Assembly (NCBI RefSeq): GCF_003991155.1
Contig: NZ_CP031293.1
Reading direction: 5' to 3' (one strand)
DNA from: Escherichia coli
GTDB taxonomy: Bacteria > Pseudomonadota > Gammaproteobacteria > Enterobacterales > Enterobacteriaceae
Length of the DNA stretch: 64,000 nucleotides
The position numbers and the translations under genes are program-made. Positions 18,349 to 57,223 of this stretch are shown piece by piece. Each line of letters opens with the position of its first letter. Position 1 is the stretch's first letter. The notes under the pieces are model-generated. The model was not told where the DNA came from. It saw only the letters and a program-made list of their open reading frames with translations, and made no database searches.

Positions 18349-18358
18349 GGCGTGAAAA

Positions 18359-19540: not shown

Positions 19541-19542
19541 GG

Positions 19543-22500
19543 ATGGCCGACAACTTTACAGCCCGTAAGCACGGACAATGGAAAGTCATCAGCACCAAAC
19601 CGGATGTCTGTAAAACACCACGCGGAGATTCCACACCGCCTGTCCCCTACCCTGTCACAGCCAATATGGCTGAAGCAGTGATGGTGGTGCAGTCGGTGAA
19701 GCTGAACGGCTGCCCGGCAGTGGTCCTAAACCAGAGCACCATCCCTCAGACAAAGGGCGATGCCGCAGGTGCGGCAAAAGGTGTCAGCAGCGGTACAGTG
19801 GGTGATGTCTGCGAGCCGCTGGACCACAGCGAGACAGTATTTTTTGGCGGCAAGCCGATACTGCGTCACCACGATGAGTTCTGGATGAACAGCCGTAACA
19901 CCATCGGCCTAATCGTGGGCCAGCCGCCACCGGCAGGCGTGCCTGCGGAAGAAGCGGACCCGCCGGATGAACCGGAGACGGAAGAAGAGGAAGAAAAGAG
20001 CAGCTGGCTGGACTGGGTGCAGACAGGACTGGATATTGCCGGGTTTGCACCGGGCTTTGGTTTTTTTGCCGATATGCTGAATGCGGGTATCAGCCTGGCG
20101 CGTGGTAATTATGCTGACGCGTTTATGTCTGTGGCGGCCTCACTTCCGGGGATAGGTGATGCGGCAGCGGCTGGCAGGATGGCAGTTAAAGGACGAAAAG
20201 CAGCAAAGGCGGCTAAAGAAGCCGCCGAACGAGCCGCAAAGAAAAAGCTGGAGAAGGAGGCGGCAATGCGCTCCCGTGCGCTGAGAAAAGCCCAGAAGAA
20301 AGCGGCAGCTAAAAAGAAAGGGGGTATCGTTAAGGGGAAAGCGAAAAATAACAAAGGCAAAGGTAAGGGTGCGGAAAGCAGTGATTGTACCAAACCCGGC
20401 GAACCCGTGGACGCCGGAACCGGCGACTTTCTCCAGCACTTCAGCGTTCTTTCCCTTCCCGGCTCACTTCCTCTCACGCTTTCCCGGTTTTACCGTTCTC
20501 AGGCACAACATGGCGGCATCTTTGGTCCCAAATGGACCGATGAATGGTCCGTATCCCTGAAGGTACACACTGACGGCAACCTGCACTTCACTGACGGTGA
20601 AGGGGTGGAACTGTACTACCCCATTCCGCAGGACGGCATTTTTGAGGGTGCAGCGAACTCCCGCCAGGCACACTACCGGCTGACGGGCGACATGAGCGGA
20701 GAACTGTCGTTGTCCGACCGCCGCACACAGCAGACACAGATTTTTTCTCAGGCAGGCACAGGTACTTATTTGCTGTCTGCCCTTCATGACAATTACGGCA
20801 ACCGGATTGATTTTATCCGCACGGACGGCCTGCTGACAGAAATCCGCCACAGCGACGGCTACACGCTCGCGCTTGCCTGGCTACAGCAGCAACTAATGAG
20901 CATTGACCTGGCAACACCGCGGCGTCAGCGCCTTGTCACCTGTCAGTACGATGATAATGGTTATCTGGCAGAGTGCGATACTTTCCAGTTTTCTCATCTG
21001 TGGCATGAATACACGACTGAAGGGTTTATGACCCGCTGGCGGGATACGGATAAAACCTGCGTGGATATCCGTTACGACCCGCAGGGGCGCGCCATCAGCA
21101 CCCTGTCAACCGAAGGCTATTACGACGACCGTTTTATCTATAACGATGAAGAGCACTGTACCACCTACGTGGATGCAGAAGGCGGCGAAACCCGTTACTG
21201 GTATAACGAAGACGGCCTGGTCACCCACAGCACCGACCCGCTGGGCCGTGAAGAGATTACAGTATGGGAAAACACGCAACTTCAGTCGCGCACCGACGCG
21301 CTGGGGCGTAAAACAGCGTATGAATATAACGATGAGGGCGATATCTGGCATGTTGCCCTGCCGGGCGGCTACAGCCTCTATTACGACTACAACGACGCCG
21401 GGCAGTTAACCCGCCTGACCCTGCCGGGCGACCAGGTATGGCTGTGGGACTACGACGATAAGGGCAGCATGGTCTGCCTGACCGACCCGCAGGGCCGGAA
21501 ACAGCAGTTCAGCTACAGCCAACAGGGTGATTTACTGGCGCGGATTATGCCGGGCGGAGCCACCTGGCGCTGGAGCCATGACGCCCTGCACCAGGTGCGC
21601 GAGACCACTGCGCCGGACGGCGGCGTCACGCAGACTGAACAGGATATGCTGGGCCGCCTGCTGAGTGTGAAAGACCCGCTGGGCTTCACCACGCAGTTCC
21701 GCCACAGCAAAACCCACGCTGGGCCGCTGGGCAGCGTGGAAGAAATTAACCGCCCGGATGGCGTGCGGGAACTGATGCGCCAGAACAGTGAAAAGCTGCC
21801 GGAGAGCTTCACCGATGGCGAAGGCAAAACCACCCGCTACGAATATGGTGCATTTGACCTGTTAACGGCAGTTATCCGCCCGGATGGTGAACGGCTGGAG
21901 TGCCGCTACGACAAGCTGACCCGCCTGACCGAAATCACCAACGCGGAAGGTGAGCACTACCGTCTGGAATATGATAAAGCCGGGCAGCTTATCGCGGAAA
22001 CCGACTTCACCGGGCGCACACTGACCTACAGCTACGATGCGGCAGGCCGCTGTACCCGCACCACCTTCCCGGACGGCACTCACCTGAACCGCCGCTACAA
22101 CGTGACCGACCAGGTAACGGACGAGGAAGTCACCCAGGGCGACAGCAACCGTACCCTGAGCGCCACCACCTTCCTCTATGACACGCTGTGCCGCCTGGTG
22201 GAGGCGAAAAACGATGATGCCATCGTTACGTATGAATATGACAGTGCCAGCAGGGTTGTGGCCGAGACAATCAACGGCAGGCGTACAGAATACAGTTACG
22301 ACAATAATCTCGACACAGTTTCACAGCGCACCACCGCAGGCATCACAGAGCACTTCACCCGCAACCTGATGGGCTATCTGACCACCTGGCAGATAGCCGA
22401 CCATGCCCCGCTGACATTTGAACATGACCTGCGCGGCATGGAAACGTCCCGACGCAGCGAGGCCGGGTTTTACCAGACGCTGGCTTACACCCGCACAGGA

Positions 22501-23961
22501 ATGCCAACGAAGCAGAATGCCGGGGACCACCGGGCCGGCTCGGATGAGCGGAATAAAAGCCTGAAGCGCCAGTGGCTGTATGACAAAGCGTATAATCTGA
22601 CCGCAATCGCCGACTCGCTGCGCGGCTCCATGTTCAACACCATCACGGCGAACGACCAGATAAGCCACGCCACCTGGACGGGTGATTCCAGTCAGTTTCC
22701 GCTGTGTGAGGAACTGTTCACTTACGACAAAAACCTGAACATCACCCGCCGCCAGACCCGGGTGAATGACATACTGGAAAGCGAAACGCACCAGCAGAAC
22801 CGGCATGGACGGGTGATATCAAGTGAGCATGAAGGCTGGCGGCACTCAACGCACCGCATCAATCCGCAGACAGGAAAACCGGAAGAAGGGAAATTTGTCC
22901 GGGTGGTGAACGCCCATAACGTCACCTGGAAATACGATGTTAACGGCAGGCTGATACAGAAGCTGGTCGATAAAGGCGGTTACCGACCGCTGGAATGGCG
23001 CTACAGATGGGACGCGCGCAGCCAGCTAACCGGGCTGGAAACCCCGGATGGTGAACGCTGGGAATACAAATACGACCCCTTCGGCAGGCGCATCAGCAAG
23101 CGCTGCACCAACCGCGACAAACCCGGTATGGATTTTCACTGGAATGGCGACCAGTTGACGGAGGAAATTCCGGTCGGCGCTGACAGTAGTCCTGATACTG
23201 AAAACAGCATCCGCTGGATATATGAGCCGGGAAGTTTTACACCGATTGCGCGTTATGAGAAGGGGCAACTGCATTATGCAGTGACGAACACGGTTGGCCG
23301 CGTACAGGAACTGCTGACAGAAAACGGCCTGATAGTCTGGAAAGGCAAGCAGCAGCTATGGGGCCGTGAGGAAGGCAGAAATAAGAAAGATGCGCCCACA
23401 TGCCGGTTACGTTTTCCGGGGCAGTACGAGGATGTGGAATCAGGGTTGTACTATAACCGGTTCCGGTACTATGATTGCGAGACAGGACAATATCTGTGTG
23501 CTGATCCGTCAGGATTGGACGGAGGGATTAATCCATATGGGTATGTGCATAATCCATTAGGGTGGGCAGACCCTTTTGGGCTAGCCAAAAAGAACGCTCA
23601 GAATACAGTTTTCAGATATCTGAGTGCAGACGATCGTATTCGATATGAGAATGGTCAAAGTTTATTACCTAAAGGTGAGTTTGGTTCAATAGTTGAACAT
23701 GTTGATGGAAAAAATACAGGACATATTTCTGCATCGCTTACCAAGTGTGCAGCTAAAATATTTGATTCGGGCAATGGGTATATAGAAATTGATGTTCAAA
23801 AAATTATCGACAGTGGTATATCATTTATTGATCACAAGAATGTTATGCAAGCGGTTCGTCGTAGCGGCTCTTTAACTAACAGGAGAGATGCCGAAAGAGC
23901 ACTAGAAGTTCTCTTCAAAGGTGAAATTCCCTTTGATGCAATTATTCGTCATGTTATATAA
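19543..23961 (+). CDS. rhs: PAAR-like/Rhs repeat effector with variable C-terminal toxin domain
   Basis: 1472 aa; N-terminal PAAR-like region, Lys/Ala-rich linker, YD repeats, core ending in DPSGLDGGINPYGYVHNPLGWADPFGL, then ~125 aa unique C-terminus. Confidence 0.9.
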   Translation: MADNFTARKHGQWKVISTKPDVCKTPRGDSTPPVPYPVTANMAEAVMVVQSVKLNGCPAVVLNQSTIPQTKGDAAGAAKGVSSGTVGDVCEPLDHSETVFFGGKPILRHHDEFWMNSRNTIGLIVGQPPPAGVPAEEADPPDEPETEEEEEKSSWLDWVQTGLDIAGFAPGFGFFADMLNAGISLARGNYADAFMSVAASLPGIGDAAAAGRMAVKGRKAAKAAKEAAERAAKKKLEKEAAMRSRALRKAQKKAAAKKKGGIVKGKAKNNKGKGKGAESSDCTKPGEPVDAGTGDFLQHFSVLSLPGSLPLTLSRFYRSQAQHGGIFGPKWTDEWSVSLKVHTDGNLHFTDGEGVELYYPIPQDGIFEGAANSRQAHYRLTGDMSGELSLSDRRTQQTQIFSQAGTGTYLLSALHDNYGNRIDFIRTDGLLTEIRHSDGYTLALAWLQQQLMSIDLATPRRQRLVTCQYDDNGYLAECDTFQFSHLWHEYTTEGFMTRWRDTDKTCVDIRYDPQGRAISTLSTEGYYDDRFIYNDEEHCTTYVDAEGGETRYWYNEDGLVTHSTDPLGREEITVWENTQLQSRTDALGRKTAYEYNDEGDIWHVALPGGYSLYYDYNDAGQLTRLTLPGDQVWLWDYDDKGSMVCLTDPQGRKQQFSYSQQGDLLARIMPGGATWRWSHDALHQVRETTAPDGGVTQTEQDMLGRLLSVKDPLGFTTQFRHSKTHAGPLGSVEEINRPDGVRELMRQNSEKLPESFTDGEGKTTRYEYGAFDLLTAVIRPDGERLECRYDKLTRLTEITNAEGEHYRLEYDKAGQLIAETDFTGRTLTYSYDAAGRCTRTTFPDGTHLNRRYNVTDQVTDEEVTQGDSNRTLSATTFLYDTLCRLVEAKNDDAIVTYEYDSASRVVAETINGRRTEYSYDNNLDTVSQRTTAGITEHFTRNLMGYLTTWQIADHAPLTFEHDLRGMETSRRSEAGFYQTLAYTRTGMPTKQNAGDHRAGSDERNKSLKRQWLYDKAYNLTAIADSLRGSMFNTITANDQISHATWTGDSSQFPLCEELFTYDKNLNITRRQTRVNDILESETHQQNRHGRVISSEHEGWRHSTHRINPQTGKPEEGKFVRVVNAHNVTWKYDVNGRLIQKLVDKGGYRPLEWRYRWDARSQLTGLETPDGERWEYKYDPFGRRISKRCTNRDKPGMDFHWNGDQLTEEIPVGADSSPDTENSIRWIYEPGSFTPIARYEKGQLHYAVTNTVGRVQELLTENGLIVWKGKQQLWGREEGRNKKDAPTCRLRFPGQYEDVESGLYYNRFRYYDCETGQYLCADPSGLDGGINPYGYVHNPLGWADPFGLAKKNAQNTVFRYLSADDRIRYENGQSLLPKGEFGSIVEHVDGKNTGHISASLTKCAAKIFDSGNGYIEIDVQKIIDSGISFIDHKNVMQAVRRSGSLTNRRDAERALEVLFKGEIPFDAIIRHVI

Positions 23962-23980
23962 AATAGGAAGGAGTGGAATA

Positions 23981-24274
23981 ATGCCTGCACTATCTGAGTA
24001 CTCGAATGTACACAACACTGTTTTTAATATTTTGATTTGTAAAGGATATCGATTGTGGCATGAAAAAAAACAAGAAAGATATTATGCCGAAAAAGATGGT
24101 TGGGATTTTGTAGCCAATAGCCCGTGTGCTCTCTTGGGGCTCATTGCTATTTATGAATATAAAAAACCCGATCATTATTATGAGTACTGGTGGAAAGATG
24201 AAGGATTACATTTAGAAAAAAACATTAGTGAAATCGCTCCTGAATATAACTCAATCATTTTAAAAAATAATTAG
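23981..24274 (+). CDS. Putative immunity protein for Rhs C-terminal toxin
   Basis: Start MPALSEYS at 23981 with AGGAAGGAG RBS, immediately after rhs stop; AT-rich small ORF. Confidence 0.5.
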   Translation: MPALSEYSNVHNTVFNILICKGYRLWHEKKQERYYAEKDGWDFVANSPCALLGLIAIYEYKKPDHYYEYWWKDEGLHLEKNISEIAPEYNSIILKNN

Positions 24275-24289
24275 TTGTATACTACTATG

Positions 24290-26030
24290 ATGATGACTCG
24301 GTAATAATAACAAACGAAACCCTCAACGGCAGACGGACGGAATATGGCCACGACGCAGAACAGGATTATGTCACCCGGCGCACCACCGCAGGCATTACGG
24401 AACGTTTCACCCGCGGGTTGATGGGTGAGCTGACATCGTGGCAGATAGCCGACCATGCGCCGCTGGCATTTGAATATGACCTGCGCGGCCAGGAAACATC
24501 CAGACAAAGCGAGGCCGGATTTTACCAGACGCAGGGCTACACGCAGACAGGAATGCTGACAACGCAGCGTTCGGGAAGCCAGGCAGAGCCGGAGGCGAAG
24601 AATAAAGACCTGCAACGCCAGTGGCTGTACGACCATGCGTATAACCTGACGATGATATCGGACACGCTGCGCGGGACGATGGTCAACAGCGTGACAGCGA
24701 ACGACCAGATAAGCCATGCCACCTGGACGGGCAGCAGTAATATGCCGATGAGTGAGGAACGCTTCCTCTACGACAAAAACCTGAATATCACCGCCGCCAG
24801 ACCTGGGTGAACGAGGTACTGGAGAGCGAGACACATCAGCAGCAACAGCATGGCCGGGTGGCGTCGCGTGGACACAAAGAATGGCGACACTCAACGCACC
24901 GGATTAACCCGGACACTGGCAAGCCGGAGGAAGGGAAATTTGTCCGGGTGGTCAACGCGCACGGTATCACCTGGAAGTACGATATTAACGGTCGTCTGGT
25001 GGAGAAGCTGGTCGATAAAGGTGGCTATCGCCCTCTCCAGTGGCGTTACAAATGGGATTCACGCAGCCAGTTGACCGGGCTGGAAACACCGGATGGTGAA
25101 CGCTGGGAGTATAAATACGACCCGTTCGGCAGGCGCATCAGCAAACGCTGTACCAGCCACGATAAACCCGGTATGGATTTTCACTGGAACGGCGACCAGT
25201 TGACGGAGGAAATTCCGGTTGGTGTGGATGGCAAACCGGAAGACGAAAACGCCATCCGCTGGATATACGAGCCGGGAGATTTCACGCCGTTTGCGCGTTA
25301 TGAGAAGGGGCAACTGAATTATGCGGTGACGGACACGGTTGGACGAGTACAGGAACTGCTGACCGAAGACGGCCTGATTGTCTGGAAAGGCAAGCAGCAG
25401 CTATGGGGACGTGAGGAAGGCATCAATAAGGGCGATGCACCCACCTGTCGGTTACGTTTTCCGGGGCAGTATGAGGACACAGAATCGGGACTGTACTATA
25501 ACCGGTTCCGGTACTATGATTGCGGGACGGGGCAGTATATCTCTTCAGATCCGATTGGGCTGAGAGGGGGAATAAAACCATATGGCTATGTTCATAGTCC
25601 ATTAAATTATATTGACCCATTAGGTTTAGCTAACGCTAAAGTTATAGATAATGTTTTGCATATTGTGGATAAATTTGGAGTAAATGGGGCTGCTCCTGAT
25701 ACTGCAGCATCCAGAGAATTGGCTGAGTTTGTAAAAAGATGGAACGAGCAGATAGTGGCGAATGGTGGTTCAATGGCCAGACGTTCTGTTTGTAAAGAAG
25801 TCAGAAAAGCAGCAAGTGAAGCCGCCGCTGCTGAGAGAAAACTTAACCCAAGTTTATATGCTAATGGTGAAGTGGCGGGGCATATTCCAGATGTTGGATG
25901 GGGTGGAAAAATTGATGGTCCGTTTATGCCGTTAAGTCCAAAAGTAAATTCTTATATTGGTGGGTTAACTCAAGCAGTGCCTGTTGGTACAACTTATACA
26001 TCGGTAAGAATAGTGGACATTATACTATGA
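24290..26030 (+). CDS. Orphan rhs C-terminal cassette 1 (core fragment + distinct toxin tip), frameshifted near 24793
   Basis: Nucleotide and protein similarity to 22270..23580 of the main rhs; 1-bp deletion (atcaccgccgccagac vs atcacccgccgccagac) breaks the frame; ORF 24807..26030 carries DPLGL followed by a different C-terminus. Confidence 0.75.
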
Positions 26031-26554
26031 AAAAATTAAAAGAATTGATTAACGATATTTTGGTTGATTTAAAAATAAATATAACGGAATTACCTGTCAC
26101 TTTACACAGCCATGATAAAGTACCCACGCTAAAAAAAGATTACTATAGAAATCTTAGCCCTATGCTAAAGGTTAGATTTGGTATGTTCTCTAGTTGGAAG
26201 AATGCAACACATGGGGATTGGCTTTCAATAGAAGAGATGATGGAAATTTGGCGTGATGATTTGGTAATAAATGACCGATTGTGGCGAATTAAGGAGAATC
26301 AGATAGCTGCTCGTAATAATTGGGACAATGATGCTTCTTCGCTTTTCAAAAATAATAGATTATCACTTTTTGCTGGAAGTGAGTCTACCTATGAACGAAT
26401 ATATCTGCTTTGGTTAGATAGTGAAATTGAACCTGAGATATGGGTATATGACTGCAATGGTGAATCGAGATATAAAAATCTAGAGTCTTATTTAAATGCA
26501 TATATAAATGACGATGTTAGTGCTAGTAATGAGTCATGGAGAGCCAAATACTGA
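26027..26554 (+). CDS. Putative immunity protein for orphan toxin 1
   Basis: 175 aa, ATGA overlap with toxin stop, AT-rich. Confidence 0.5.
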   Translation: MKKLKELINDILVDLKINITELPVTLHSHDKVPTLKKDYYRNLSPMLKVRFGMFSSWKNATHGDWLSIEEMMEIWRDDLVINDRLWRIKENQIAARNNWDNDASSLFKNNRLSLFAGSESTYERIYLLWLDSEIEPEIWVYDCNGESRYKNLESYLNAYINDDVSASNESWRAKY

Positions 26555-26704
26555 CGCAGCGACAGTCACCCAGTTAGAGTGAGAGCATGAAAAATATGTT
26601 TTTATACAATATTTTATCGCTATATTTTTGTCATCTGTTTTTGCGCGAAAATCACTCGACAATTTGCATGATATAACCAATTACTCATTAAATTTACCTG
26701 CAGC

Positions 26705-28310
26705 CTAGTAGGGCTGTCTGACCACCTGGCAGATAGCGGACCATGCCCCGCTGACATTTGAGCATGACCTGCGCGGCATGGAAACCTCCCGACGCAGCGG
26801 GGCCGGATTTTACCAGACGCTGGCTTACACGCGCACAGGGATGCCAGCGAAGCAGAATGCCGGGGACCACCAGGCCGGGCCGCATGAGCGAAATAAAAGC
26901 CTGGAGCGGGAATGGCTTTACGACAAAGCGTATAACCTGACCGCAATCGCCGACTCGCTGCGCGGCTCCATGTTCAACACCATCACGGCAAACGACCAGA
27001 TAAGCCACGCCACCTGGACGGGTGATTCCAGCCAGTTTCCGCTGTGCGAGGAGCTGTTCACTTACGATAAAAACCTGAACATCACCCGCCGCCAGACCCG
27101 TGTGAATAACGTCCTGGAAAGCGAAACGCACCAGCAACAGCAGCATGGCCGGGTGATATCCAGTGAGCATGAAGGCTGGCGGCACTCAACGCACCGCATC
27201 AATCCGCAGACAGGAAAACCGGAAGAAGGGAAATTTGTCCGGGTGGTGAATGCCCATAACATCACCTGGAAATACGATGTTAACGGCAGGCTGGTACAGA
27301 AGCTGGTCGATAAAGGTGGCTACCGCCCTCTCGAATGGCGCTACAGATGGGATGCAAGAAGCCAGCTAACCGGACTGGAAACCCCGGATGGCGAACGCTG
27401 GGAATATAAATACGACCCGTTTGGCAGGCGCATCAGCAAACGCTGCACCAACCGCGACAAACCCGGCATGGATTTTCACTGGAACGGCGACCAGCTAACG
27501 GAGGAAATTCCGGTTGGCGTTAACGGTAAACCGGAAGACGAAAACGCCATCCGCTGGATATACGAGCCGGGAGATTTCACGCCGTTTGCGCGTTATGAGA
27601 AGGGGCAACTGAATTATGCGGTGACGGACACGGTTGGACGAGTACAGGAACTGCTGACCGAAGACGGCCTGATTGTCTGGAAAGGCAAGCAGCAGCTATG
27701 GGGACGTGAGGAAGGCATCAATAAGGGCGATGCACCCACCTGTCGGTTACGTTTTCCGGGGCAGTATGAGGACACAGAATCGGGACTGTACTATAACCGG
27801 TTCCGGTACTATGATTGCGAGACGGGGCAGTATATCTCTTCAGATCCCATAGGATTACTTGGGGGGATAAATCCTTATGGATATGTTCGTAACTCGCTGG
27901 AATTGATTGACCCTTGGGGGCTAGACAGTAAACGCGCTCGACTCCTCAAACAAAAAGGATTCCAAGAACATCATATTATCAGCGATAAAAACAGCTTAAC
28001 CAAAAACCATCCATTGTTGAAGGCCGCGGCATACGACCTACAGAAAATGAAAAACAAGATTTTCTTACCTACAAAATGTGAACTTCATGCAACTCGATCC
28101 ATTCATAAAGGGAGGCATCAAAAAAAGGTAAGTGAAAACCTGGCAAATGAAATGGACAAAGTGTTAGAACACGGGAGAAAACATGGGTGGACGCAAAAAC
28201 AATACAGTGACGCACTTGACGAAATAGTTGCTAAAGAAAGAGCCCTCTTGAAATCTGGCCATAGAGCTTTAAATAAAAACAGACGTGCATGGTCTGTTTT
28301 ACTAACTTAA
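26705..28310 (+). CDS. Orphan rhs C-terminal cassette 2 with HNH/AHH-like nuclease tip
   Basis: Similarity to main rhs from ~22380 onward; core ends DPWGL; C-terminus has EHHIIS ... H ... H pattern resembling the AHH-type HNH nuclease toxin domain. Confidence 0.7.
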
Positions 28311-28322
28311 CAGAGAAAATAT

Positions 28323-28880
28323 ATGTATAGATGGACAATCCCAGAACAATATGCCAATAAGTATATTGGAGAATATCAATATGAATCTTTTGATTACTTA
28401 CTTTTTTCTCATAGCACACCAATTGAAAGAGTTGAGAATATCAATCCAGTCATTATCTACGCGATGCCCGATGAAATGATAAATAAATATGATTGCTTGC
28501 CAAATAGTTCATTGATCCCCGTAGTTAATGAACGACTAAAGGACTTCCTGGAAACACATGCCAAAGGTAATGTTGAGTTTCATAAAATAGACCTTCACAC
28601 GAACAATGGACTCAAAGATGGTTTTTATCTTTTGAATACACTCACAAAACTACCGTTAATTGATATGCAGCACTCTCATTGCCAGTATATTCCCGGAACA
28701 ACAGCGATCATGGGGTTTGAACAGGTTTTTTTTATTGAAGAGCCTCCGGAAGATTTTTGCATTGCACGATGCGCAGAATATTCATCTTATCTTATGTTAT
28801 CTGATTCATTAGTAAAAAAAATGAAAAAAGAAAAATTTAAAGGAATTTCATATTCGAAAGTTCCTGTTCACCGAGGTTAA
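28323..28880 (+). CDS. Putative immunity protein for orphan toxin 2
   Basis: 185 aa ORF 13 nt after the toxin stop; AT-rich. Confidence 0.5.
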   Translation: MYRWTIPEQYANKYIGEYQYESFDYLLFSHSTPIERVENINPVIIYAMPDEMINKYDCLPNSSLIPVVNERLKDFLETHAKGNVEFHKIDLHTNNGLKDGFYLLNTLTKLPLIDMQHSHCQYIPGTTAIMGFEQVFFIEEPPEDFCIARCAEYSSYLMLSDSLVKKMKKEKFKGISYSKVPVHRG

Positions 28881-28966
28881 AATAATTGGACATATAACAA
28901 ATATATTAAATCGGTAGCATCTCCAGGGAAGGATCATCGTATTCGTATGCCGTAGGCACGCCGTAA

Positions 28967-29360
28967 TCTGGTATAACGAAGACGGCCTGCTCACCCGCAG
29001 CACCGACCCGCTCGGTCGGGAAGAGATTACGGTATGGGAGAACACGCAACTCCAGTCACGCACCGATGCACTGGGGCGTAAAACAGCGTATGAATACAAC
29101 GATGAGGGCGATATCTGGCACGTCGCCCTGCCGGGTGGTTACAGTCTGTACTATGACTACAACGACGCCGGACAGTTAACCCGCCTGACCCTGCCGGGCG
29201 ACCAGGTATGGCAGTGGGATTACGACGATAAGGGCAGCATGGTCTGCCTGACCGACCCGCAGGGCCGGAAACAGCAGTTCAGCTACTGCGCACAGGGGGA
29301 TTTACTGGCGCGGATTATGCCGGGCGGAGCCACCTGGCGCTGGAGCCATGACGCCCCAGG
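28967..29360 (+). pseudogene. Internal rhs core fragment
   Basis: Translation WYNEDGLLTRSTDPLGREEITVWENTQLQSRTDALGRKTAYEYNDEGDIWHVALPGG matches the main rhs at ~21185..21585; no start or stop context. Confidence 0.8.
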
Positions 29361-29384
29361 GAACAGGGAAAGATCACGTAACGC

Positions 29385-30658
29385 TGCTTTTTTGTACTAA
29401 ATAATTCGCATTTTATGTTTAAAAATTGAGATATTCCTCATTACCTAAAGCTTTTTTTTATTGCTTATACATGATCAAATACTCCTTACATAATTAAGGA
29501 GAACAAAATGGAACTTAAAAAATTGATGGAACATATTTCTATTATCCCCGATTACAGACAAGCCTGGAAAGTGGAACATAAATTATCGGATATTCTACTG
29601 TTGACTATTTGTGCCGTTATTTCGGGTGCAGAAGGCTGGGAAGATATAGAGGATTTTGGGGAAACACATCTCGATTTTTTGAAGCAATATGGTGATTTTG
29701 ATAATGGTATTCCTGTTCACGATACCATTGCCAGAGTTGTATCCTGTATCAGTCCTGCAAAATTTCACGAGTGCTTTATTAACTGGATGCGTGACTGCCA
29801 TTCTTCAGATGATAAAGACGTCATTGCAATTGATGGAAAAACACTCCGGCATTCTTATGACAAGAGTCGCCGCAAGGGTGCGATTCATGTCATTAGTGCG
29901 TTCTCAACAATGCACAGTCTGGTCATCGGACAGATCAGGACGGATGAGAAATCCAATGAAATTACAGCTATCCCTGAACTTCTTAACATGCTGGATATTA
30001 AAGGAAAAATCATCACAACTGATGCGATGGGTTGCCAGAAAGATATTGCAGAGAAGATACAAAAACAGGGCGGTGATTATTTATTCGCTGTAAAAGGAAA
30101 TCAGGGGCTGCTTAATAAAGCCTTTGAGGAAAAATTTCCACTGAAAGAATTAAATAATCCAGAGCATGACAGTTACGCCATTAGTGAAAAGAGTCACGGC
30201 AGAGAAGAAATCCGTCTTCATATTGTTTGCGATGTCCCTGATGAACTTATTGATTTCACGTTTGAATGGAAAGGACTGAAGAAATTATGCGTGGCAGTCT
30301 CCTTTCGGTCAATAATAGCAGAACAAAAGAAAGAGCCAGAAATGACGGTCAGATATTATATCAGTTCTGCTGATTTAACCGCAGAGAAGTTCGCCACAGC
30401 AATCCGAAACCACTGGCACGTGGAGAATAAGCTGCACTGGCGTCTGGACGTGGTAATGAATGAAGACGACTGCAAAATAAGAAGAGGAAACGCAGCAGAA
30501 TTATTTTCAGGGATACGGCACATTGCTATTAATATTTTGACGAATGATAAGGTATTCAAGGCAGGGTTAAGACGTAAGATGCGAAAAGCAGCCATGGACA
30601 GAAACTATCTCGCGTCAGTCCTTGCGGGGAGCGGGCTTTCGTAATCTTGCCCTGGGGT
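29385..30658 (+). mobile_element. ISAs1-family (H-repeat) insertion sequence, copy 1
   Basis: Near-identical ~120 bp leader and 3' end shared with copy 2; contains intact transposase ORF; boundaries approximate. Confidence 0.7.
29508..30644 (+). CDS. ISAs1-family transposase (H-repeat-associated protein)
   Basis: 378 aa, recognisable H-rpt/ISAs1 transposase sequence ([18 protein letters not shown]...). Confidence 0.85.
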
Positions 30659-30813
30659 TTTGGGCTAACGAAATGGAAAATTTAACATAAATTTAATTCA
30701 TGCTCTTGCCCTGATTTCGGGCTGACATAATAGTGAAGATTTTAACACAAATTTAATTCATGTCCTCATCCCAGTATAGACTTTAATTTTATTTTTTTGA
30801 TAAGGTACTACAT

Positions 30814-31647
30814 ATGGCTTTCGTTTCTGCGTTAGTTAATTTGCGTTATGATTTAAACAAATATATTGTAGAGTTACGACGCATTTCAAATCTTGCCGCG
30901 ACATTTCTTATGGAAGATGATTTTATTAAGAATTTCTATCTTAATGAAGTTGAAATAAGCATAAATAATTATAATTTTAGATTCAATAACGAGCGAAACC
31001 CATTCAAGCAAAGGGAAATAGTTTTTGAACTTAAAGAAGAAGTTGAGTTGGAAAAAAAAGAATATGATATATTAAGAATGAAAGATCATGTTACTTATAT
31101 GGTAACTGATATGTTTGAAGAACAAGGCGTGTTAAAATATGTAAAAATATTTGGAGGGGTTGCTACAGGAGGAATAGAACTTTTCACTGCCTATGGGTAT
31201 TATCAATTGGGTAAAACATTACACCTTAGAAGATTACGTGGGATAGCAATTGTTTTTGCTTCTTATGGCGTTGATAATATATGGGAGTCAGTCTCTCCTT
31301 TGATTTTTGAAGAAGCGAATGCAGGGCCTCTTAGACGTGTTATTCGGGGAATTGCTGGTGAGTTTGGAATAAGTGAAGATGATTCTGATTTAGGGTATAG
31401 TTTTGTTGAATTTTCATTGTCCTTATATAATACTTTTAATGCAAGAAAATTGTTTCCGAATGAAAATAGGTTAGTTATAGGTGTGGGAAGAAAAAGGCCA
31501 GGGACTGGTAGGCTTTTTAATAATGTAAGCTGGGATTATGCATCTAAATGGTCAAAAATGAATACAAATATGAAGATTTGGAATTTAGGGTATAGCGCTT
31601 ATAAAGCCAAACTGGAATTTTATGATGAGAAATATAAATTTAAATAA
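30814..31647 (+). CDS. Hypothetical protein, AT-rich, between the two ISAs1 copies
   Basis: 277 aa ORF with two hydrophobic segments (YVKIFGGVATGGIELFTAYGYY; GIAIVFASYGV); no family recognised. Confidence 0.4.
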   Translation: MAFVSALVNLRYDLNKYIVELRRISNLAATFLMEDDFIKNFYLNEVEISINNYNFRFNNERNPFKQREIVFELKEEVELEKKEYDILRMKDHVTYMVTDMFEEQGVLKYVKIFGGVATGGIELFTAYGYYQLGKTLHLRRLRGIAIVFASYGVDNIWESVSPLIFEEANAGPLRRVIRGIAGEFGISEDDSDLGYSFVEFSLSLYNTFNARKLFPNENRLVIGVGRKRPGTGRLFNNVSWDYASKWSKMNTNMKIWNLGYSAYKAKLEFYDEKYKFK

Positions 31648-31723
31648 TATTTCACATTACGTACTTTTAAAAAAGTATAATTATTAGCCGGTTAATTCAA
31701 TTATATAACACAGCCTCATTGCG

Positions 31724-31966
31724 CTAAAATAAAATTCGTATACCAAGTTTTATCAGCTTTAACTGAGTGATGATCTTTACATTATTGTTTTTTGCATCTG
31801 AGCATAAAATCATGACACTAAATATTGAAAACACAGCAGACATAAAGAAAAAAGCGGCCCCTCTTTCCAAGAGGATTCCGAGAATGAAAGCAAAAAATGC
31901 CACTGCCGGAAACCATAGCGACAAAGCGTCTTTTGCAGAGTCATATATCACATCTATTAGTGTCAA
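31724..31966 (-). CDS. Hypothetical small membrane protein
   Basis: 80 aa ORF with two predicted transmembrane helices; coding status uncertain. Confidence 0.25.
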   Translation of the reverse strand: MTLIDVIYDSAKDALSLWFPAVAFFAFILGILLERGAAFFFMSAVFSIFSVMILCSDAKNNNVKIITQLKLIKLGIRILF

Positions 31967-32169
31967 ATCTTTAGTTAAATTTGGATGAAGAGTTTTTTAA
32001 TATTTTTAAAATTATGCCTAAGACTGAATAACTCGTTATATTTAAAACCGTTAGTAATAATTTTACGCCTTACTTTTTCCAGTTTCATTTATTATCACTC
32101 CTTGAGATCTTTAAATTATTATAGTGTATTTTTTAAGTGAGTCAATGCATCAGAGAAAGATCATCAGAA

Positions 32170-33445
32170 GAACTCTTTTTGTACTAAATAATTCGCATTT
32201 TATGTTTAAAAATTGAGATATTCCTCATTGTCTGAAGCTGTTTTTTATTGCTTATACATGATCAAATACTCCTTACATAATTAAGGAGAACAAAATGGAA
32301 CTTAAAAAATTGATGGAACATATTTCTATTATTCCCGATTACAGACAAGTCTGGAAAGTGGAACATAAATTGTCTGATATTCTACTGCTGACTATTTGTG
32401 CCGTTATTTCGGGTGCAGAAGGTTGGGAAGATATAGAGGATTTTGGGGAAACACATCTCGATTTTTTAAAACAATACGGTGATTTTGAAAATGGTATTCC
32501 TGTTCACGATACCATTGCCAGAGTTGTATCCTGTATCAGTCCTGCAAAATTTCACGAGTGCTTTATTAACTGGATGCGTGACTGCCATTCTTCAGATGAT
32601 AAAGACGTCATCGTAATTGATGGAAAAACACTCTGGCATTATTATGACAAGAGTCGCCGCAAGGGAGCGATTCATGTCATTAGTGCGTTCTCAACAATGC
32701 ACAGTCTGGTCATCGGACAGATCAAGACGGATGAGAAATCCAATGAGATTACAGCTATCCCAGAACTTCTTAACATGCTGGATATTAAAGGAAAAATCAT
32801 CACAACTGATGCGATGGGTTGCCAGAAAGATATTGCAGAGAAGATACAAAACAGGGAGGTGATTATTTATTCGCTGTAAAAGGAAACCAGGGGCGGCTAA
32901 ATAAAGCCTTCGAGGAAAAATTTCCGCTGAAAGAATTAAATAATCCAGAGCATGACAGTTACGCAATGAGTGAAAAGAGTCACGGCAGAGAAGAAATCCG
33001 TCTTCACATTGTTTGCGATGTCCCTGATGAACTTATTGATTTCACGTTTGAATGGAAAGGTCTGAAGAAATTATGCGTGGCAGTCTCCTTTCGGTCAATA
33101 ATAGCAGAACAAAAGAAAGAGCCAGAAATGACGGTCAGATATTATATCAGTTCTGCTGATTTAACCGCAGAGAAGTTCGCCACAGCAATCCGAAACCACT
33201 GGCACGTGGAGAATAAGCTGCACTGGCGTCTGGACGTGGTAATGAATGAAGACGACTGCAAAATAAGAAGAGGAAACGCCGCAGAATTATTTTCAGGGAT
33301 ACGGCACATCGCTATTAATATTTTAACGAATGATAAGGTATTCAAGGCAGGGTTAAGACGTAAGATGCGAAAAGCTGCCATGGACAGAAACTATCTCGCG
33401 TCAGTCCTTGCGGGGAGCGGGCTTTCGTAATCTTTCCCTGGAGTG
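32170..33445 (+). mobile_element. ISAs1-family insertion sequence, copy 2 (transposase frameshifted)
   Basis: Same leader and ends as copy 1; direct orientation; boundaries approximate. Confidence 0.7.
32295..33430 (+). pseudogene. ISAs1-family transposase, frameshifted
   Basis: Split into ORFs 32295..32879 and 32819..33430; 1-bp deletion in an A-run near 32850 relative to copy 1 (acaaaaacagggcgg vs acaaaacagggagg). Confidence 0.8.
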
Positions 33446-35448
33446 AGTATTTTGATTTACTGAAATATCTTATTAGAAACGGATATATTGATGAAACATA
33501 TAATGACTATATAACATATTTCTATGAAAACAGTTTAAACCGGAGTGACAAAGCTTTTTTAAGAAGTATTTCCGATAAAAAAGGGAAAGATTTTTCTTAT
33601 GCTTTGAATAACCCCTCATTAATAGCAAGTCGATTACAACTTTATGATTATAGCCAGCAAGAAACGTTAAATTTTGATTTGTTGGATCACCTCTTGGATT
33701 CATTGACTCAACATACAACACAACTTAAGACATTTATATCTCAACTGAAAAAAGATAAAAATCTCCGATTTATTAAAGAGTACATGGACACTGAACGTAA
33801 TATTTCAAGGTTAATCCCTTTATTAAATCAGCAGTGGAGTGATTTTTTTCAATTGATGTTGAATGAAAAATTATATACACAACAACAAATAAAATCATAT
33901 TCCCTGGACAGTCTTTATTTTTCAAATCAAGACACTTTATTAAAAGTCAACCATAATGGCTGTCTATCACAGTATATATCTGAACATAAAACATATCTAA
34001 ATATAGAACAGCCTCAAATTCAAATGCTAATAGATAAGTTTAAATGTTTAGATATTTTATTTAAGAATTTATCATATAACAACTCAGAAGCATCTTTATT
34101 TTCAGCCGTATATAAAGAGTCACTTTATGAACTTAATTATCATAATTTAAAAGAGCTTATTTGCTATGAATACAAATGTGCAGACGAAGATAAAATCAAA
34201 CACCAAAACTTCACCATATTACTAAGCAATGCATCAACATATCTTTATAAAAAGATAGATAAAAATATCGAAAAATATATAGCTATAGTTCTCGAAAATT
34301 GTGAGAATAGTATAGCTGATGCTGAAAATGCAGTTGTTGTAATTATTAATAAATCAGGAATTGATGAGGAAATAAAAAAATCATACATAGCAAAACTCAA
34401 TAATAGATTGAGTGACTTAAGTAAAATAGATGAATCAAATATGTGGTCTTACTTATTAGACCAACGAAAAATAGAGTATACTGCTGAGAATATTATTTTT
34501 TATTTTTCTCAGCATAGTGAATTAGATGAAACAATAATTAAATTTATAGATAGCGAAAAATCTATTACACTAGACTATTATAGTGGGTTTACAGACGATA
34601 TCAAAGAGAGATTTTTCGACAAGGTCATCATTTGTGAACAAATTAGCGATAACAAATACTTCGAGATATTATCTTCATTAGACTATTGCTATGAATCATT
34701 TGATATATCCGGTTTGCAGGATGCGAAGATAAAAGTACTTATCGACACTAATATAATTCGAATGTCCATTCTGAATCTAGAGTTTCTAAGAACTACATAT
34801 CCTAATAACCTTATGCATTATATAAATAAAAATATAATCGACTATATTAAACTACAGACAGGTGAATCTGCTGTTAGTGACACAAATGAAATTTTGAACG
34901 TCTTAGAATTAGATATTGATGATTCACAAAAAGAAAAGCTATCAATGATAGTAGATACTCCAATCTCTATTCAAAATAATAAATACTCAACTCTCTTTAA
35001 GAAACACATCCTCACAAATAAATTAGATATAAATGACATCCCTTATCTCATAGAAAATTATGGCACATTAGTAGCACTTCAATCGACAATTCTAATCATT
35101 TTAAGTGGTCACGTCAATGAGGTAAAAGATCATGCTGATAAATTATCGATTAACTTGTTAGAGGTCTTAATAAAGGATGCTCATTTTATCCATGATGATA
35201 ATGTAGAATTATTTGTAAAGCAGATAACTAACATGAATAAAATACAAATCAAGAAGTTTCTAAAACTGATTAATTCTTCTGAGTTAACTATCTTATTAGA
35301 TAAAAAATTGGCATCGATAAAAATAAGCTCGTCTAATGAAAAAATACTTAAGAGTTTCATAACAAATGGATTAATAAAATCCTACAGCCAAAGTACTGAA
35401 GATCCTGAATCATACATAATAGATTTCCCTGAGGAGTTTCTTGATTAA
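33439..35448 (+). CDS. AT-rich hypothetical protein, probably 5'-truncated at the ISAs1 end
   Basis: Frame open from the IS junction (33439) to 35448 (669 codons); no in-frame ATG in the first ~110 codons; Asn/Lys/Ile/Tyr-rich; no family recognised. Confidence 0.5.
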   Translation, partial: WSEYFDLLKYLIRNGYIDETYNDYITYFYENSLNRSDKAFLRSISDKKGKDFSYALNNPSLIASRLQLYDYSQQETLNFDLLDHLLDSLTQHTTQLKTFISQLKKDKNLRFIKEYMDTERNISRLIPLLNQQWSDFFQLMLNEKLYTQQQIKSYSLDSLYFSNQDTLLKVNHNGCLSQYISEHKTYLNIEQPQIQMLIDKFKCLDILFKNLSYNNSEASLFSAVYKESLYELNYHNLKELICYEYKCADEDKIKHQNFTILLSNASTYLYKKIDKNIEKYIAIVLENCENSIADAENAVVVIINKSGIDEEIKKSYIAKLNNRLSDLSKIDESNMWSYLLDQRKIEYTAENIIFYFSQHSELDETIIKFIDSEKSITLDYYSGFTDDIKERFFDKVIICEQISDNKYFEILSSLDYCYESFDISGLQDAKIKVLIDTNIIRMSILNLEFLRTTYPNNLMHYINKNIIDYIKLQTGESAVSDTNEILNVLELDIDDSQKEKLSMIVDTPISIQNNKYSTLFKKHILTNKLDINDIPYLIENYGTLVALQSTILIILSGHVNEVKDHADKLSINLLEVLIKDAHFIHDDNVELFVKQITNMNKIQIKKFLKLINSSELTILLDKKLASIKISSSNEKILKSFITNGLIKSYSQSTEDPESYIIDFPEEFLD

Positions 35449-35493
35449 TGCTAATCTTTAACAAGATGTCATAAATACACTTCAACAAAGAAA

Positions 35494-36766: not shown

Positions 36767-37684
36767 TTAGCTCACCAATTGCCACTGCCTTTTTTCCATC
36801 ACTGGAGAATTCATCACTGACATTAACAACTCTTTCACTGCTTGCGCCTGTGGTGATAAGTTCGCTCTGGCGGGTAAATTTAATGACAAAGAGAGACTCA
36901 TGGAAGGAGTGGTAATGCGTGACATCCAACCATTTACTGCGCCACATAACGAACGCGCGGCCGATTCGGGTAATACTGCAACGCCCATGCCGCTGGCAAT
37001 CGCTGCGGTAAGCGTGGCAATAGACTCAATTTCACCAATGACTTTTGCCGTGAGTCGCCGTAGGGAAAAAGCCTCATCAACACGAAGTCTAATAGCACTG
37101 TAATCACTTGGGAGAAAAAGGTTCATTTGCGCAATAGCATTAACATCAACGCTTTGCCCCGGGCAATCTTGAGTTCCTACCAGAAAAAGATCTTCTTTCA
37201 GTAAAGCCTGACTGGATACACCAGCCACAGGGGAATGCTCATAAATCACCGCCATATCGAGTTGGTGATTTATCAGTTTTTCGTTAAGTACTGCACCGCT
37301 ATTTTCATGAAGATAAATAACGACCTCCGGGAATTCAGCGCGAACCGCCTGTAATAAGGGCATGGTGATGGATGACGCAGCGGTTCCTGGCGCAAAGCCA
37401 ATCGAGACTTGCCCCGATAATGCCTGACCAACGTTATGCACCGCCAGTTGGGCCTGCTCACACTGACGTAAAATGGCCCGCGCATGGGTATAGAGAATTT
37501 TTCCGGCGTCAGTTGGCGTAACACCCCGTTTTGTGCGAATCAAAAGTTGTTGATTTAACTCACCTTCCAGTGTGGCAACCTGCTGACTGAGCGCTGGTTG
37601 TGCGATATGCAATACTTCAGCAGCCTGGGTCAGGCTACCAATATCTACAATTTTTACGAAGTATTTCAGGCGTCTGAAGTTCAT
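36767..37684 (-). CDS. nac: LysR-family nitrogen assimilation control protein Nac
   Basis: Start MNFRRLKYFVKIVDIGSLTQAAEVLHIAQPALSQQ at 37684 (305 aa); recognised as Nac. Confidence 0.9.
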   Translation of the reverse strand: MNFRRLKYFVKIVDIGSLTQAAEVLHIAQPALSQQVATLEGELNQQLLIRTKRGVTPTDAGKILYTHARAILRQCEQAQLAVHNVGQALSGQVSIGFAPGTAASSITMPLLQAVRAEFPEVVIYLHENSGAVLNEKLINHQLDMAVIYEHSPVAGVSSQALLKEDLFLVGTQDCPGQSVDVNAIAQMNLFLPSDYSAIRLRVDEAFSLRRLTAKVIGEIESIATLTAAIASGMGVAVLPESAARSLCGAVNGWMSRITTPSMSLSLSLNLPARANLSPQAQAVKELLMSVMNSPVMEKRQWQLVS

Positions 37685-37738
37685 GTTGCCTCCGGTTTTT
37701 AAGAATCGGCCCAAGTGCCGCCATTACTTACAACCAGA

Positions 37739-37754
37739 TTGCAAGATGCTTGCC
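37739..37754 (-). promoter_or_regulatory. sigma54 (-24/-12) promoter for nac
   Basis: Minus-strand TGGCAAGCATCTTGCA matches TGGCAC-N5-TTGCA with correct GG-to-GC spacing, ~55 nt upstream of the nac start. Confidence 0.6.
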
Positions 37755-37870
37755 AGTTTTATTTTGGCGTTGATGTACAAGCTAACCAACTGTCAAATAA
37801 GAGATTATGATAGTTTTGTCACTCGATCTTTTTATTAGAACTCGCGTTCTCTGCCCCAAGACATAAAGGT

Positions 37871-37887
37871 ATGCACCACGATGGTTC
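37871..37887. promoter_or_regulatory. Putative NtrC enhancer half-palindrome upstream of nac
   Basis: TGCACCACGATGGTTCA resembles the TGCACC-N5-GGTGCA NtrC site consensus. Confidence 0.3.
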
Positions 37888-38008
37888 ATTACCAAAAAGA
37901 TTGAAAGCTCACCATTTTGTCGAAATTGGCAGCAAACAAACAAAAAAATGCATTTCACCCTTTGACATCACCATGCACTGCCATTAATATGCGCCCCGTT
38001 CACACGAT

Positions 38009-38084
38009 TCCTCTGTAGTTCAGTCGGTAGAACGGCGGACTGTTAATCCGTATGTCACTGGTTCGAGTCCAGTCAGAGGAGCCA
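38009..38084 (+). tRNA. asnV: tRNA-Asn (anticodon GTT)
   Basis: 76 nt TCCTCTGTAGTTCAGTCGGTAGAACGGCGGACTGTTAATCCGTATGTCACTGGTTCGAGTCCAGTCAGAGGAGCCA; cloverleaf consistent, anticodon GTT at 38042..38044; gene symbol inferred from position next to nac. Confidence 0.9.
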
Positions 38085-38250
38085 AATTTTAGTCTTGAGA
38101 CATCTCTATAAGTCTCAGGATAGTTAAAAAACAAGAACTTATCTTTACCCGGTTGTCTCGCAAGAGGCTGCTGGGTTTCTTGACATCCATAGTTTTTAGG
38201 GGCCTAATCAGGGGCCTCACGGTTCGGTGAGCAAACGGAGCCCCCACGCT

Positions 38251-39513
38251 ATGGCATTAACAGACACCGCTATTCGCAAGACTAAACCCTCTGACAAACC
38301 CTTCAAAATGACGGACAGTTCTGGACTGTACCTGTTGATCAAACCTAACGGCTCAAAACTCTGGTATATGAAGTACCGCATCGACGGCAAAGAGAAGAAA
38401 CTGGCCTTTGGCCCCTACCCGGAGATCTCCCTGTTGCAGGCTCGCCGCCTGCGCGAAACAGCACGCAATAACATTCATGCAGGCGTCGATCCGGCTGCGG
38501 TGAAGCAAACCGAGAAACAGAAGAGGAAAAACGGGCAGACGTTCAGCCAGATCGCCATCAACTGGCATAGCGAGCATAAACGCTGGTCTGAGCATTACGC
38601 GAAAACGGTTATGCGCAGGCTGGAAATGTACGTTTTCCCGGATATCGGGGATCGCCTTATCGAGGAGATCGAAACGGAGGATTTGTTATTCACGTTGCGC
38701 AAGGTAGAGAGTAAAGGCTTTCTGGAAATCACCGCGCGGCTGAAAAACTACGTCACCGATATCATGCACTACGCGATGAAAAAGAAACTGCTCAAAGCGA
38801 ACCCGGCGCTGTATCTGGACGGTGAGTTTGCCGCGCCAGAAACCAGTCACTACCCGGCCCTGTCGCTGGACAAATTGCCTGAGCTTTTAACCCGGACGGA
38901 TAGCTACTGCGGCAGGCTGCTGACAAAATACGCGCTTAAGCTGTCGCTGATTTTTTTTGTGCGCTCCAGCGAACTACGCTTTGCGCGCTGGAGTGAGATC
39001 GACTGGCAGCAGAAGTTATGGATAATCCCGGAAGAGCGCGAACAGATCGAAAACGTGCGCTTCTCTTACCGGGGGTCGAAAATGAAAATCCAGCACATTG
39101 TGCCGCTGTCGGATCAGGCGATTGCGATACTGAAACAGATCGAGGCCCTCTCCGGGCATCTGGCCTTTATTTTTCCCGGCGAATACGACCAGGACAAGTG
39201 CATGAGCGACAACACCGTCAACAAGGCGCTGCGCGTGATGGGTTACGACACCAAAAAGGATATCTGCGGGCATGGCTTCCGGGCAATGGCCTGTAGTGCG
39301 CTGAGCGAATCGGGATTATGGAGCAAAGAAGCCATTGAAAAGCAGATGAGCCACCAGGAAAGAAACAGCGTCCGTGCTGCCTATATTCACAAGGCTGAAT
39401 ATCTGGAGGAACGGATCGAGATGATGCAGTGGTGGTCAGATTATCTTGATGCAAACAGTGACGGGTATGTCTCGGCTTACCAGTATGCCCGCCGCCTAAA
39501 ACAGGCGTCGTAA
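38251..39513 (+). CDS. int: P4-like tyrosine integrase
   Basis: ORF 38227..39513; probable start MALTDTAIRKTKP at 38251; phage-integrase family features; lies directly 3' of the tRNA. Confidence 0.85.
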   Translation: MALTDTAIRKTKPSDKPFKMTDSSGLYLLIKPNGSKLWYMKYRIDGKEKKLAFGPYPEISLLQARRLRETARNNIHAGVDPAAVKQTEKQKRKNGQTFSQIAINWHSEHKRWSEHYAKTVMRRLEMYVFPDIGDRLIEEIETEDLLFTLRKVESKGFLEITARLKNYVTDIMHYAMKKKLLKANPALYLDGEFAAPETSHYPALSLDKLPELLTRTDSYCGRLLTKYALKLSLIFFVRSSELRFARWSEIDWQQKLWIIPEEREQIENVRFSYRGSKMKIQHIVPLSDQAIAILKQIEALSGHLAFIFPGEYDQDKCMSDNTVNKALRVMGYDTKKDICGHGFRAMACSALSESGLWSKEAIEKQMSHQERNSVRAAYIHKAEYLEERIEMMQWWSDYLDANSDGYVSAYQYARRLKQAS

Positions 39514-39636: not shown

Positions 39637-39954
39637 ATGAAAACGATAAAGACCTACATAACTGCCGACGGGCGAGATCTGTATGCAGAGTTTTTTAAAG
39701 GGTTACGCGACCCCATCGCGAAGGCAAAGATCGCTTCCCGGATCAACCGGATGGCTTCGGACAATTTTGGCGACCATAAGCCCTGCCGGGAAGGTGTCTG
39801 GGAACTCAGGATAGATCAAGGGGCTGGGTATCGGGTTTATTACAGCCTGGTGGATGGAGAAGTCGTCCTGTTGATTCTGGCTGGCGACAAGCGTACGCAG
39901 GATGCAGATATAGATGAGGCTATTCGCTGCCTCAAAGACTATTTGAAGAGGTGA
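39637..39954 (+). CDS. RelE/ParE-superfamily toxin, HigB-like
   Basis: 105 aa; 3 nt before the antitoxin-like gene; toxin-first order typical of HigBA. Confidence 0.6.
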   Translation: MKTIKTYITADGRDLYAEFFKGLRDPIAKAKIASRINRMASDNFGDHKPCREGVWELRIDQGAGYRVYYSLVDGEVVLLILAGDKRTQDADIDEAIRCLKDYLKR

Positions 39955-39957
39955 TGT

Positions 39958-40266
39958 ATGGCGAAAGAACGTTTATATGATGATGTCATGGTGGAAGCGC
40001 TCCGGGAAGATCCTGCTTTTGCTCAGGCCTATCTGCATCAGGCATTTCTGGATATGGATGAAGATGGCGGTCAGGAAGCTTTTTTACTCGCGTTACGCCA
40101 TGTTGTTGAAGCGCGGGGAGGAATGGCGACGGTTGCCCAGAAAGCCGGTGTATCGCGTGAATCACTGTACCGCACGCTCTCCCCGACCGGCAACCCGACA
40201 CTGAAAACACTCCGCAGCGTCGTCCACGCCGCAGGTTTTCAGTTCTCTGCGCTGGCAAGTGCCTGA
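39958..40266 (+). CDS. HigA-like antitoxin (HTH)
   Basis: 102 aa; sequence resembles addiction-module antidote proteins (GVSRESLYRTLSPTGNPTLKTL helix-turn-helix region). Confidence 0.6.
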   Translation: MAKERLYDDVMVEALREDPAFAQAYLHQAFLDMDEDGGQEAFLLALRHVVEARGGMATVAQKAGVSRESLYRTLSPTGNPTLKTLRSVVHAAGFQFSALASA

Positions 40267-48930: not shown

Positions 48931-49243
48931 AATTCTAAAAATTCGCTTTTTTAGCGCAATATCACTGACCTTAGTTGAGCATTGCTTTTTAATGGATAGC
49001 GGGTTTTTGACATCTTAAGCGCCCTCGACCTTTATGGTTGAGGGCGTTTTGCTATGAACGCCATCACCATTTTCCCCTCGATTATAAAACTTGAGTAATT
49101 CAGTAGTCTCCCCTCTTGCAACTCACACCCAAAACTGCTTAACGAAAAGTTATTAATTTTCAATCATATTGCTATCAGGATTTATATTTTTTCGCTGTGC
49201 TAGAAAGGGCGCATTTATGTTAGCTCGTTCAGGGAAGGTAAGC

Positions 49244-57223
<7,980 letters not shown>

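Follow-up and report, generated by a model that had tools for sequence, protein, structure and literature searches.

What drives the nac gene in this stretch of Escherichia coli DNA, and is the answer a promoter that we should already recognise? We think that the answer to the second part is yes, and would put the probability at about 94% that the region upstream of nac is its known enhancer-dependent sigma-54 promoter, with a sigma-54 element, an upstream NtrC enhancer and control by nitrogen starvation. As promoters go, it is an already known and ordinary one, and the original prediction was right to offer it as a sanity check on the annotation rather than as a novelty.

The region in question, positions 37685-38008 of the 64,000 nucleotides that were analysed (the window), is exactly the nac-asnV intergenic spacer of the E. 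coli chromosome. The nac coding sequence occupies 36767-37684 on the minus strand and encodes a LysR-type regulator of 305 amino acids, an assignment that comes from the list of open reading frames, from a match to NF008410, the NCBIfam equivalog of the nitrogen assimilation regulator NAC (599 bits, where 309 is the cut-off; E = 1.5e-180), and from the RefSeq annotation of identical DNA. The A of its ATG stands at 37684, and from there the minus-strand spacer reaches to the 5' end of the tRNA-Asn(GTT) gene asnV (38009-38084, plus strand), which is divergent from nac and is the sole tRNA that ARAGORN finds in the window; the next open reading frame downstream of nac is Cbl. The DNA is that of E. 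coli: a 1.6-kb query was matched in 5,424 of 5,426 complete genomes, the 100%-identical ones being annotated with nac, tRNA-Asn and an integrase. An Rfam scan of 37550-38150 returned nothing beyond the tRNA. The known system for comparison is nacp of E. coli K-12 (Muse & Bender 1998, cited in PMC4591121), which belongs to the same gene, with cbl downstream and asnV divergent upstream. There the gene order is cbl, nac, asnV, ldtA, whereas in the window an integrase-bearing island follows asnV in the place of ldtA.

At the centre of the argument is a sigma-54 -24/-12 element, CTGGCAAGCATCTTGCA, at 37740-37756 on the minus strand, pointing towards nac. Its GG lies at 37754-37753 and its GC at 37742-37741, which is the canonical spacing of TGGCAC-N5-TTGCW and bears out the exact spacing that had been claimed. 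The core motif TGGCAAGCATCTTGCA, originally placed at 37739..37754 on the minus strand, does occur, and only once in the window, but its true position is 37740-37755, one base away. From the 3' end of the element to the A of the nac ATG we count 56 nt, in good agreement with the 'about 55 nt' first given. A position weight matrix scan, one of the checks proposed at the outset, was run with a matrix trained on ChIP-seq data in Table 1 of PMC4591121, namely on its 41 intergenic sense sites other than nac; it ranks CTGGCAAGCATCTTGCA first of the 127,968 positions scored in the window, with 17.5 bits as against a median of 15.8 for the training sites. A consensus scan of 37600-38250 for sigma-70-like promoters found none on the nac strand, the only sites being on the plus strand, the asnV promoter among them. 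We also considered and rejected a terminator-like hairpin at 37741-37753 (plus strand), which is a partial dyad inside the sigma-54 element itself and of which 0.8 such matches are expected by chance.

The matrix brought up some other matches that deserve a mention in their own right. The second best in the window, CTGGCGTGCCATTTGCA at 55801-55817 on the minus strand (17.1 bits), runs antisense within an adhesin-like open reading frame of 2,684 amino acids (49169-57223, plus strand). This reading frame presumably resembles yeeJ. The main text of PMC4591121 holds neither yeeJ nor b1978 nor CTGGCGTGCCATTTGCA. Among the weaker matches, CTGGCGCGGATTATGCC appears twice as identical 17-mers (21535-21551 and 29305-29321, plus strand), which points to repeated sequence in the Rhs region.

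Where might transcription begin? The rule used in PMC4591121, which counts 19 bp downstream from the motif centre to the start, gives a predicted +1 at 37729 on the minus strand, 45 nt before the ATG, and this is the very distance that the table of that paper has for nac.

The published data concern K-12, with which the window is identical over the sigma-54 17-mer, the NtrC palindrome and the Nac-type box, and likewise over the leader and the start codon. PMC2831329 includes nac among the known sigma-54 promoters, with aaacTGGCAAGCATCTTGCAATctgg between -71 and -54 relative to the start codon; these offsets translate into 37755..37738 of the window, where the match is exact; the comparison with the published nac promoter, which had also been proposed as a check, thus finds the same element at the same offset. 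In the same study, nac expression was 4.2-fold lower in an rpoN deletion. Sigma-54 itself occupies the K-12 sequence: the ChIP-seq peak OS19 of PMC4591121 is CTGGCAAGCATCTTGCA, stands 24-fold above threshold, is confirmed experimentally according to EcoCyc, served the authors as a positive control and has a predicted start 45 nt before the gene. Expression of nac is induced on nitrogen limitation (PMC4591121, PMC10657418), and gSELEX peaks of both RpoN-holoenzyme and NtrC fall in the nac/asnV spacer (PMC8743547), at a resolution too coarse for choosing one NtrC site within it. Among the rows listed of the table in PMC4066584, the NtrC ChIP-seq enrichment of 59.6 at nac-cbl is the highest, and the interval given there corresponds to about 37668-37748 of the window; it covers the promoter and the start of nac and lies some 130 bp from the palindrome, so that it backs the locus and not an individual NtrC site. 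Taken with the identity of the 17-mer to K-12, its standing as a known promoter and its ChIP-seq peak, this binding of NtrC at the level of the locus agrees with the earlier view that the region fits known nac regulation.

Which sequence, then, would NtrC recognise? The obvious candidate is the palindrome TGCACCACGATGGTTCA, which lies at 37872-37888 with its centre at 37880, about -151 from the predicted start and 132 bp upstream of the sigma-54 centre. It differs from TGCACC-N5-GGTGCA by one mismatch and occurs once in the window, and the resemblance to an NtrC enhancer that had been proposed for it is strengthened by its identity to K-12 and by a position that is conserved across genera; what did not stand is the placement at 37871..37887, again one base off. 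Within Escherichia the left half of the palindrome varies and may read TGAACC or TGTTCC. From its sequence and position, the palindrome is probably a high-affinity NtrC enhancer site, with contacts that we infer from the match to the consensus.

How well are these elements kept outside E. coli? A scan of one genome per species gave 80 orthologous nac loci of other Enterobacteriaceae (Escherichia, Citrobacter, Enterobacter, Lelliottia, Leclercia, Kosakonia, Kluyvera, Klebsiella, Raoultella, Siccibacter and others), and the comparisons run over 82 sequences. Every one of the 82 orthologous upstream regions has a sigma-54 element. The best matrix match scores 14.6-18.6 bits, and its centre precedes the ATG by 62-68 nt, except in two Pseudocitrobacter, where the distance is 55 nt; every one also has an NtrC-type dyad with at most three mismatches. 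In 73 of the 82 sequences, 131-134 bp separate the dyad centre from the sigma-54 centre downstream of it; in the two Pseudocitrobacter sequences (L053, L055) the distance is 121-122 bp, about 11 bp shorter, and in seven sequences of the Kluyvera group (L036, L047-L049, L058, L060, L063) it is 111-112 bp, about 21-22 bp shorter. Departures from the common spacing are thus whole helical turns only, roughly one or roughly two. These steps fit the face-of-the-helix dependence that Feng et al. reportedly described in 1995 for the nac promoter of Klebsiella aerogenes. Two oddities came out of the same survey: the Kluyvera-group deletion seemingly takes out most of the region of the Nac-type box, and one record labelled 'Chryseobacterium sp. 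18061' (L056, CACSKA010000001.1) holds an enterobacterial nac locus with 81% protein identity, the same sigma-54 element and an NtrC dyad, which suggests a mislabelled record or a contaminated assembly.

Could the motifs be chance matches that have no promoter function in this strain? Loose consensus patterns are indeed found in the window at chance frequency: TGGC-N7-TTGCW has three matches against 2.0 expected, which is not beyond chance, and the NtrC consensus with up to two mismatches has two against 3.1 expected. The NtrC site scan that had been proposed thus gives a divided answer, the window-wide count being at chance and the individual site being rare, since shuffling the 420-nt upstream region 20,000 times yielded a dyad with at most one mismatch on only 12 occasions. 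The top matrix rank, the identity to a K-12 site that sigma-54 is known to bind and the universal conservation all contradict a reading by chance, and we give it hardly any weight.

A subtler objection grants that the sigma-54 promoter is real and holds that the palindrome at 37872-37888 is not a functional enhancer, with NtrC acting either from solution or through a different site of the spacer. The NtrC ChIP-seq interval of PMC4066584, in the part of its table listed, is centred on the promoter and not on the palindrome, and gSELEX is too coarse to pick a site, both of which suit this objection; a looping activator is, however, expected to cross-link at the promoter too. The palindrome is moreover the only NtrC-type site in the spacer with two mismatches or fewer, its presence in all 82 orthologues at a fixed and helically phased distance argues for function, and so does its rarity in shuffled sequence. 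We therefore consider a non-functional palindrome very improbable, though it is the one alternative that we would retain, and keep to the reading in which it is the enhancer of nac.

The enhancer may not consist of one site only. At 37852-37868 on the minus strand (centre about -131) lies a degenerate second NtrC-type site, which in other genera reads TACCCC-N4-GGGGCA; of its two halves, the promoter-proximal GGGGCA (37857-37852) alone survives in E. coli, the other being unrecognisable. Read as a 17-mer, this site has its centre 20 bp, about two turns, promoter-proximal of the first, and its GGGCA is invariant in a 20-genus alignment and lies 25-26 nt promoter-proximal of the palindrome centre in 75 of the 82 sequences. 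The half-site is probably a weak, low-affinity second NtrC site, a role that we infer from its sequence and place, and one that agrees with the 'weaker enhancer' attributed to nac in PMC10657418. The comparison with glnAp2 of E. coli is instructive here: it is likewise an NtrC-activated sigma-54 promoter that works through an upstream enhancer and DNA looping, but its enhancer comprises two NtrC sites of high affinity and it is switched on at lower NtrC~P, whereas nac, with its weaker enhancer, comes on later (PMC10657418, PMC3870243). The Klebsiella promoter offers a further comparison. The K. pneumoniae locus in our set (L076) has the same order and spacing of elements as the window; it keeps both halves of the second site, where E. 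coli has only the one, and differs in the bases of the sigma-54 spacer (GCAAATT against GCATCTT). Feng, Goss, Bender and Ninfa are said to have described in 1995, for nac of K. aerogenes/pneumoniae, a sigma-54 element with one good NtrC palindrome about 150 bp upstream and a weaker adjacent site.

The spacer is shared with asnV, and this raises the possibility that the palindrome and the conserved blocks near it serve the divergent tRNA promoter and not nac. That promoter, a near-consensus TTGACA-17-TAATAT at 37962-37990 on the plus strand, found by consensus scan, lies only about 75 bp past the palindrome, and there is a different conserved palindrome, at 37917-37936, whose position suits asnV better. 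Yet the asnV promoter is of the sigma-70 type, and NtrC is known only as an activator of sigma-54 promoters, which together argue against an NtrC dyad in the service of asnV; furthermore, a distance of whole helical turns to the sigma-54 element is expected of a nac enhancer and not of an element of a tRNA promoter. The notion that the palindrome belongs to asnV is accordingly one to which we assign almost no probability, and we continue to treat it as part of the nac promoter. As for asnV itself, a GC-rich discriminator, GCGCCCC, follows its promoter, and the mature tRNA begins about 10 nt further on. The palindrome at 37917-37936 is conserved across genera (TTGCTGACAATTTCAGCAA; TTGCTGCCAATTTCGACAA in the window) and lies about 71 bp upstream of the inferred asnV start. 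Its position and its G...C ends are reminiscent of the Fis sites at stable-RNA promoters.

The flanks of the locus are also worth a brief look. Directly after the 3' end of asnV comes a tyrosine recombinase gene (38227-39513, plus strand) with a weak match to the integrase domain PRK09692, followed by a RelE/ParE-type toxin-antitoxin pair at 39637-40266; a second copy of the tRNA-Asn 3' end that might delimit the island after asnV was not found in the window. To the left of cbl (about 16360-35450), where asnU and yeeO stand in K-12, NZ_CP029747.1, a 100% match, has type VI secretion VgrG, PAAR and Rhs genes as well as IS elements. On the right of asnV, at less than 18 kb, that same genome carries two more tRNA-Asn genes. 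There are none in the window, which therefore departs from NZ_CP029747.1 further downstream.

Between enhancer and promoter lies a third type of element, a Nac-type box, ATCATAATCTCTTAT, at 37797-37811 on the minus strand, centred at about -75. It reads ATC-N9-TAT and so agrees in five of six positions with ATA-N9-TAT, the Nac consensus that bioRxiv 10.1101/2023.07.10.548335 quotes. Within Escherichia the block does not vary; over the 82 sequences, AT-N10-TAT stands at -55..-57 from the sigma-54 centre in 60, and the strict pattern is missing in 22. In K. aerogenes, Nac binds between enhancer and promoter and represses its own promoter (PMC4740811, PMC11495319), and the place of the box fits autorepression from just such a position. 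We regard the box as a candidate site of negative autoregulation, probably bound by Nac through the bases that match its consensus.

The stretch between the enhancer and this box, 37812-37851, has low conservation in the 82-sequence profile and takes up nearly all of the differences between the window and K-12 and between Escherichia lineages, as one would expect of looping DNA. The leader of nac (37685-37728, minus strand) is another matter: it holds a Shine-Dalgarno GGAGG at 37689-37693, and GGAGGCA is kept across genera. A conserved hairpin in this leader (GCCAG-N8-CTGGC in many genera, CGGC-N6-GCCG in E. coli) was considered and rejected; RNAalifold gave no consensus structure for the leader, of the cells in the stem drawn by hand, 68% were paired, as against 64% after shuffling, and the E. 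coli leader folds no better than its shuffles (z = 0.54).

If so much of the promoter is conserved, what is particular to this strain? Over the 324-bp spacer the window diverges from K-12 by about 8%, the distance from palindrome to promoter being one base shorter in the window. Most of the differences are found at 37812-37870, packed into the looping DNA that separates the NtrC sites from the Nac-type box. This allele is rare: out of 5,418 E. coli records, just 30 reach an identity of 99% or more to it, and 5,385 share only 90-95%. Within 37812-37851 it has an A5 tract (AATAAAAAG), where K-12 has ATTAAAGG; the tract is present in most other genera and missing from the common E. coli allele.

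How, then, might the promoter work? In the mechanism that we favour, sigma-54 RNA polymerase would sit on 37740-37756 (minus strand) in a closed complex that is unable to start alone. On nitrogen limitation, phosphorylated NtrC would bind the palindrome some 151 bp upstream of the predicted start, with help from the degenerate site 20 bp closer. NtrC would then oligomerise, loop the DNA to reach the polymerase and open the promoter with ATP, so that transcription would begin near 37729 and yield Nac, the link between the NtrC response and sigma-70 promoters. Nac, for its part, would probably damp its own synthesis by binding the box at about -75, which lies between enhancer and promoter.

For the annotation, the meaning is simple: nac is called correctly in the window, as to gene, orientation and start codon, and the region is useful only as a control. 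It does illustrate that a textbook enhancer-dependent promoter can be recovered from raw sequence alone. The comparative phasing and the rare spacer allele are minor additions to a known promoter. Across 80 species the enhancer distance has been held within a few bases or shifted by whole helical turns, a pattern that agrees with the reported helical-phase sensitivity of the weak nac enhancer. It is a long shot, though one that follows if loop geometry sets the NtrC~P threshold, that the rare allele could shift the degree of nitrogen starvation at which nac comes on; were that true, the helical-turn indels of Kluyvera and Pseudocitrobacter would be natural evidence that only phase is constrained.
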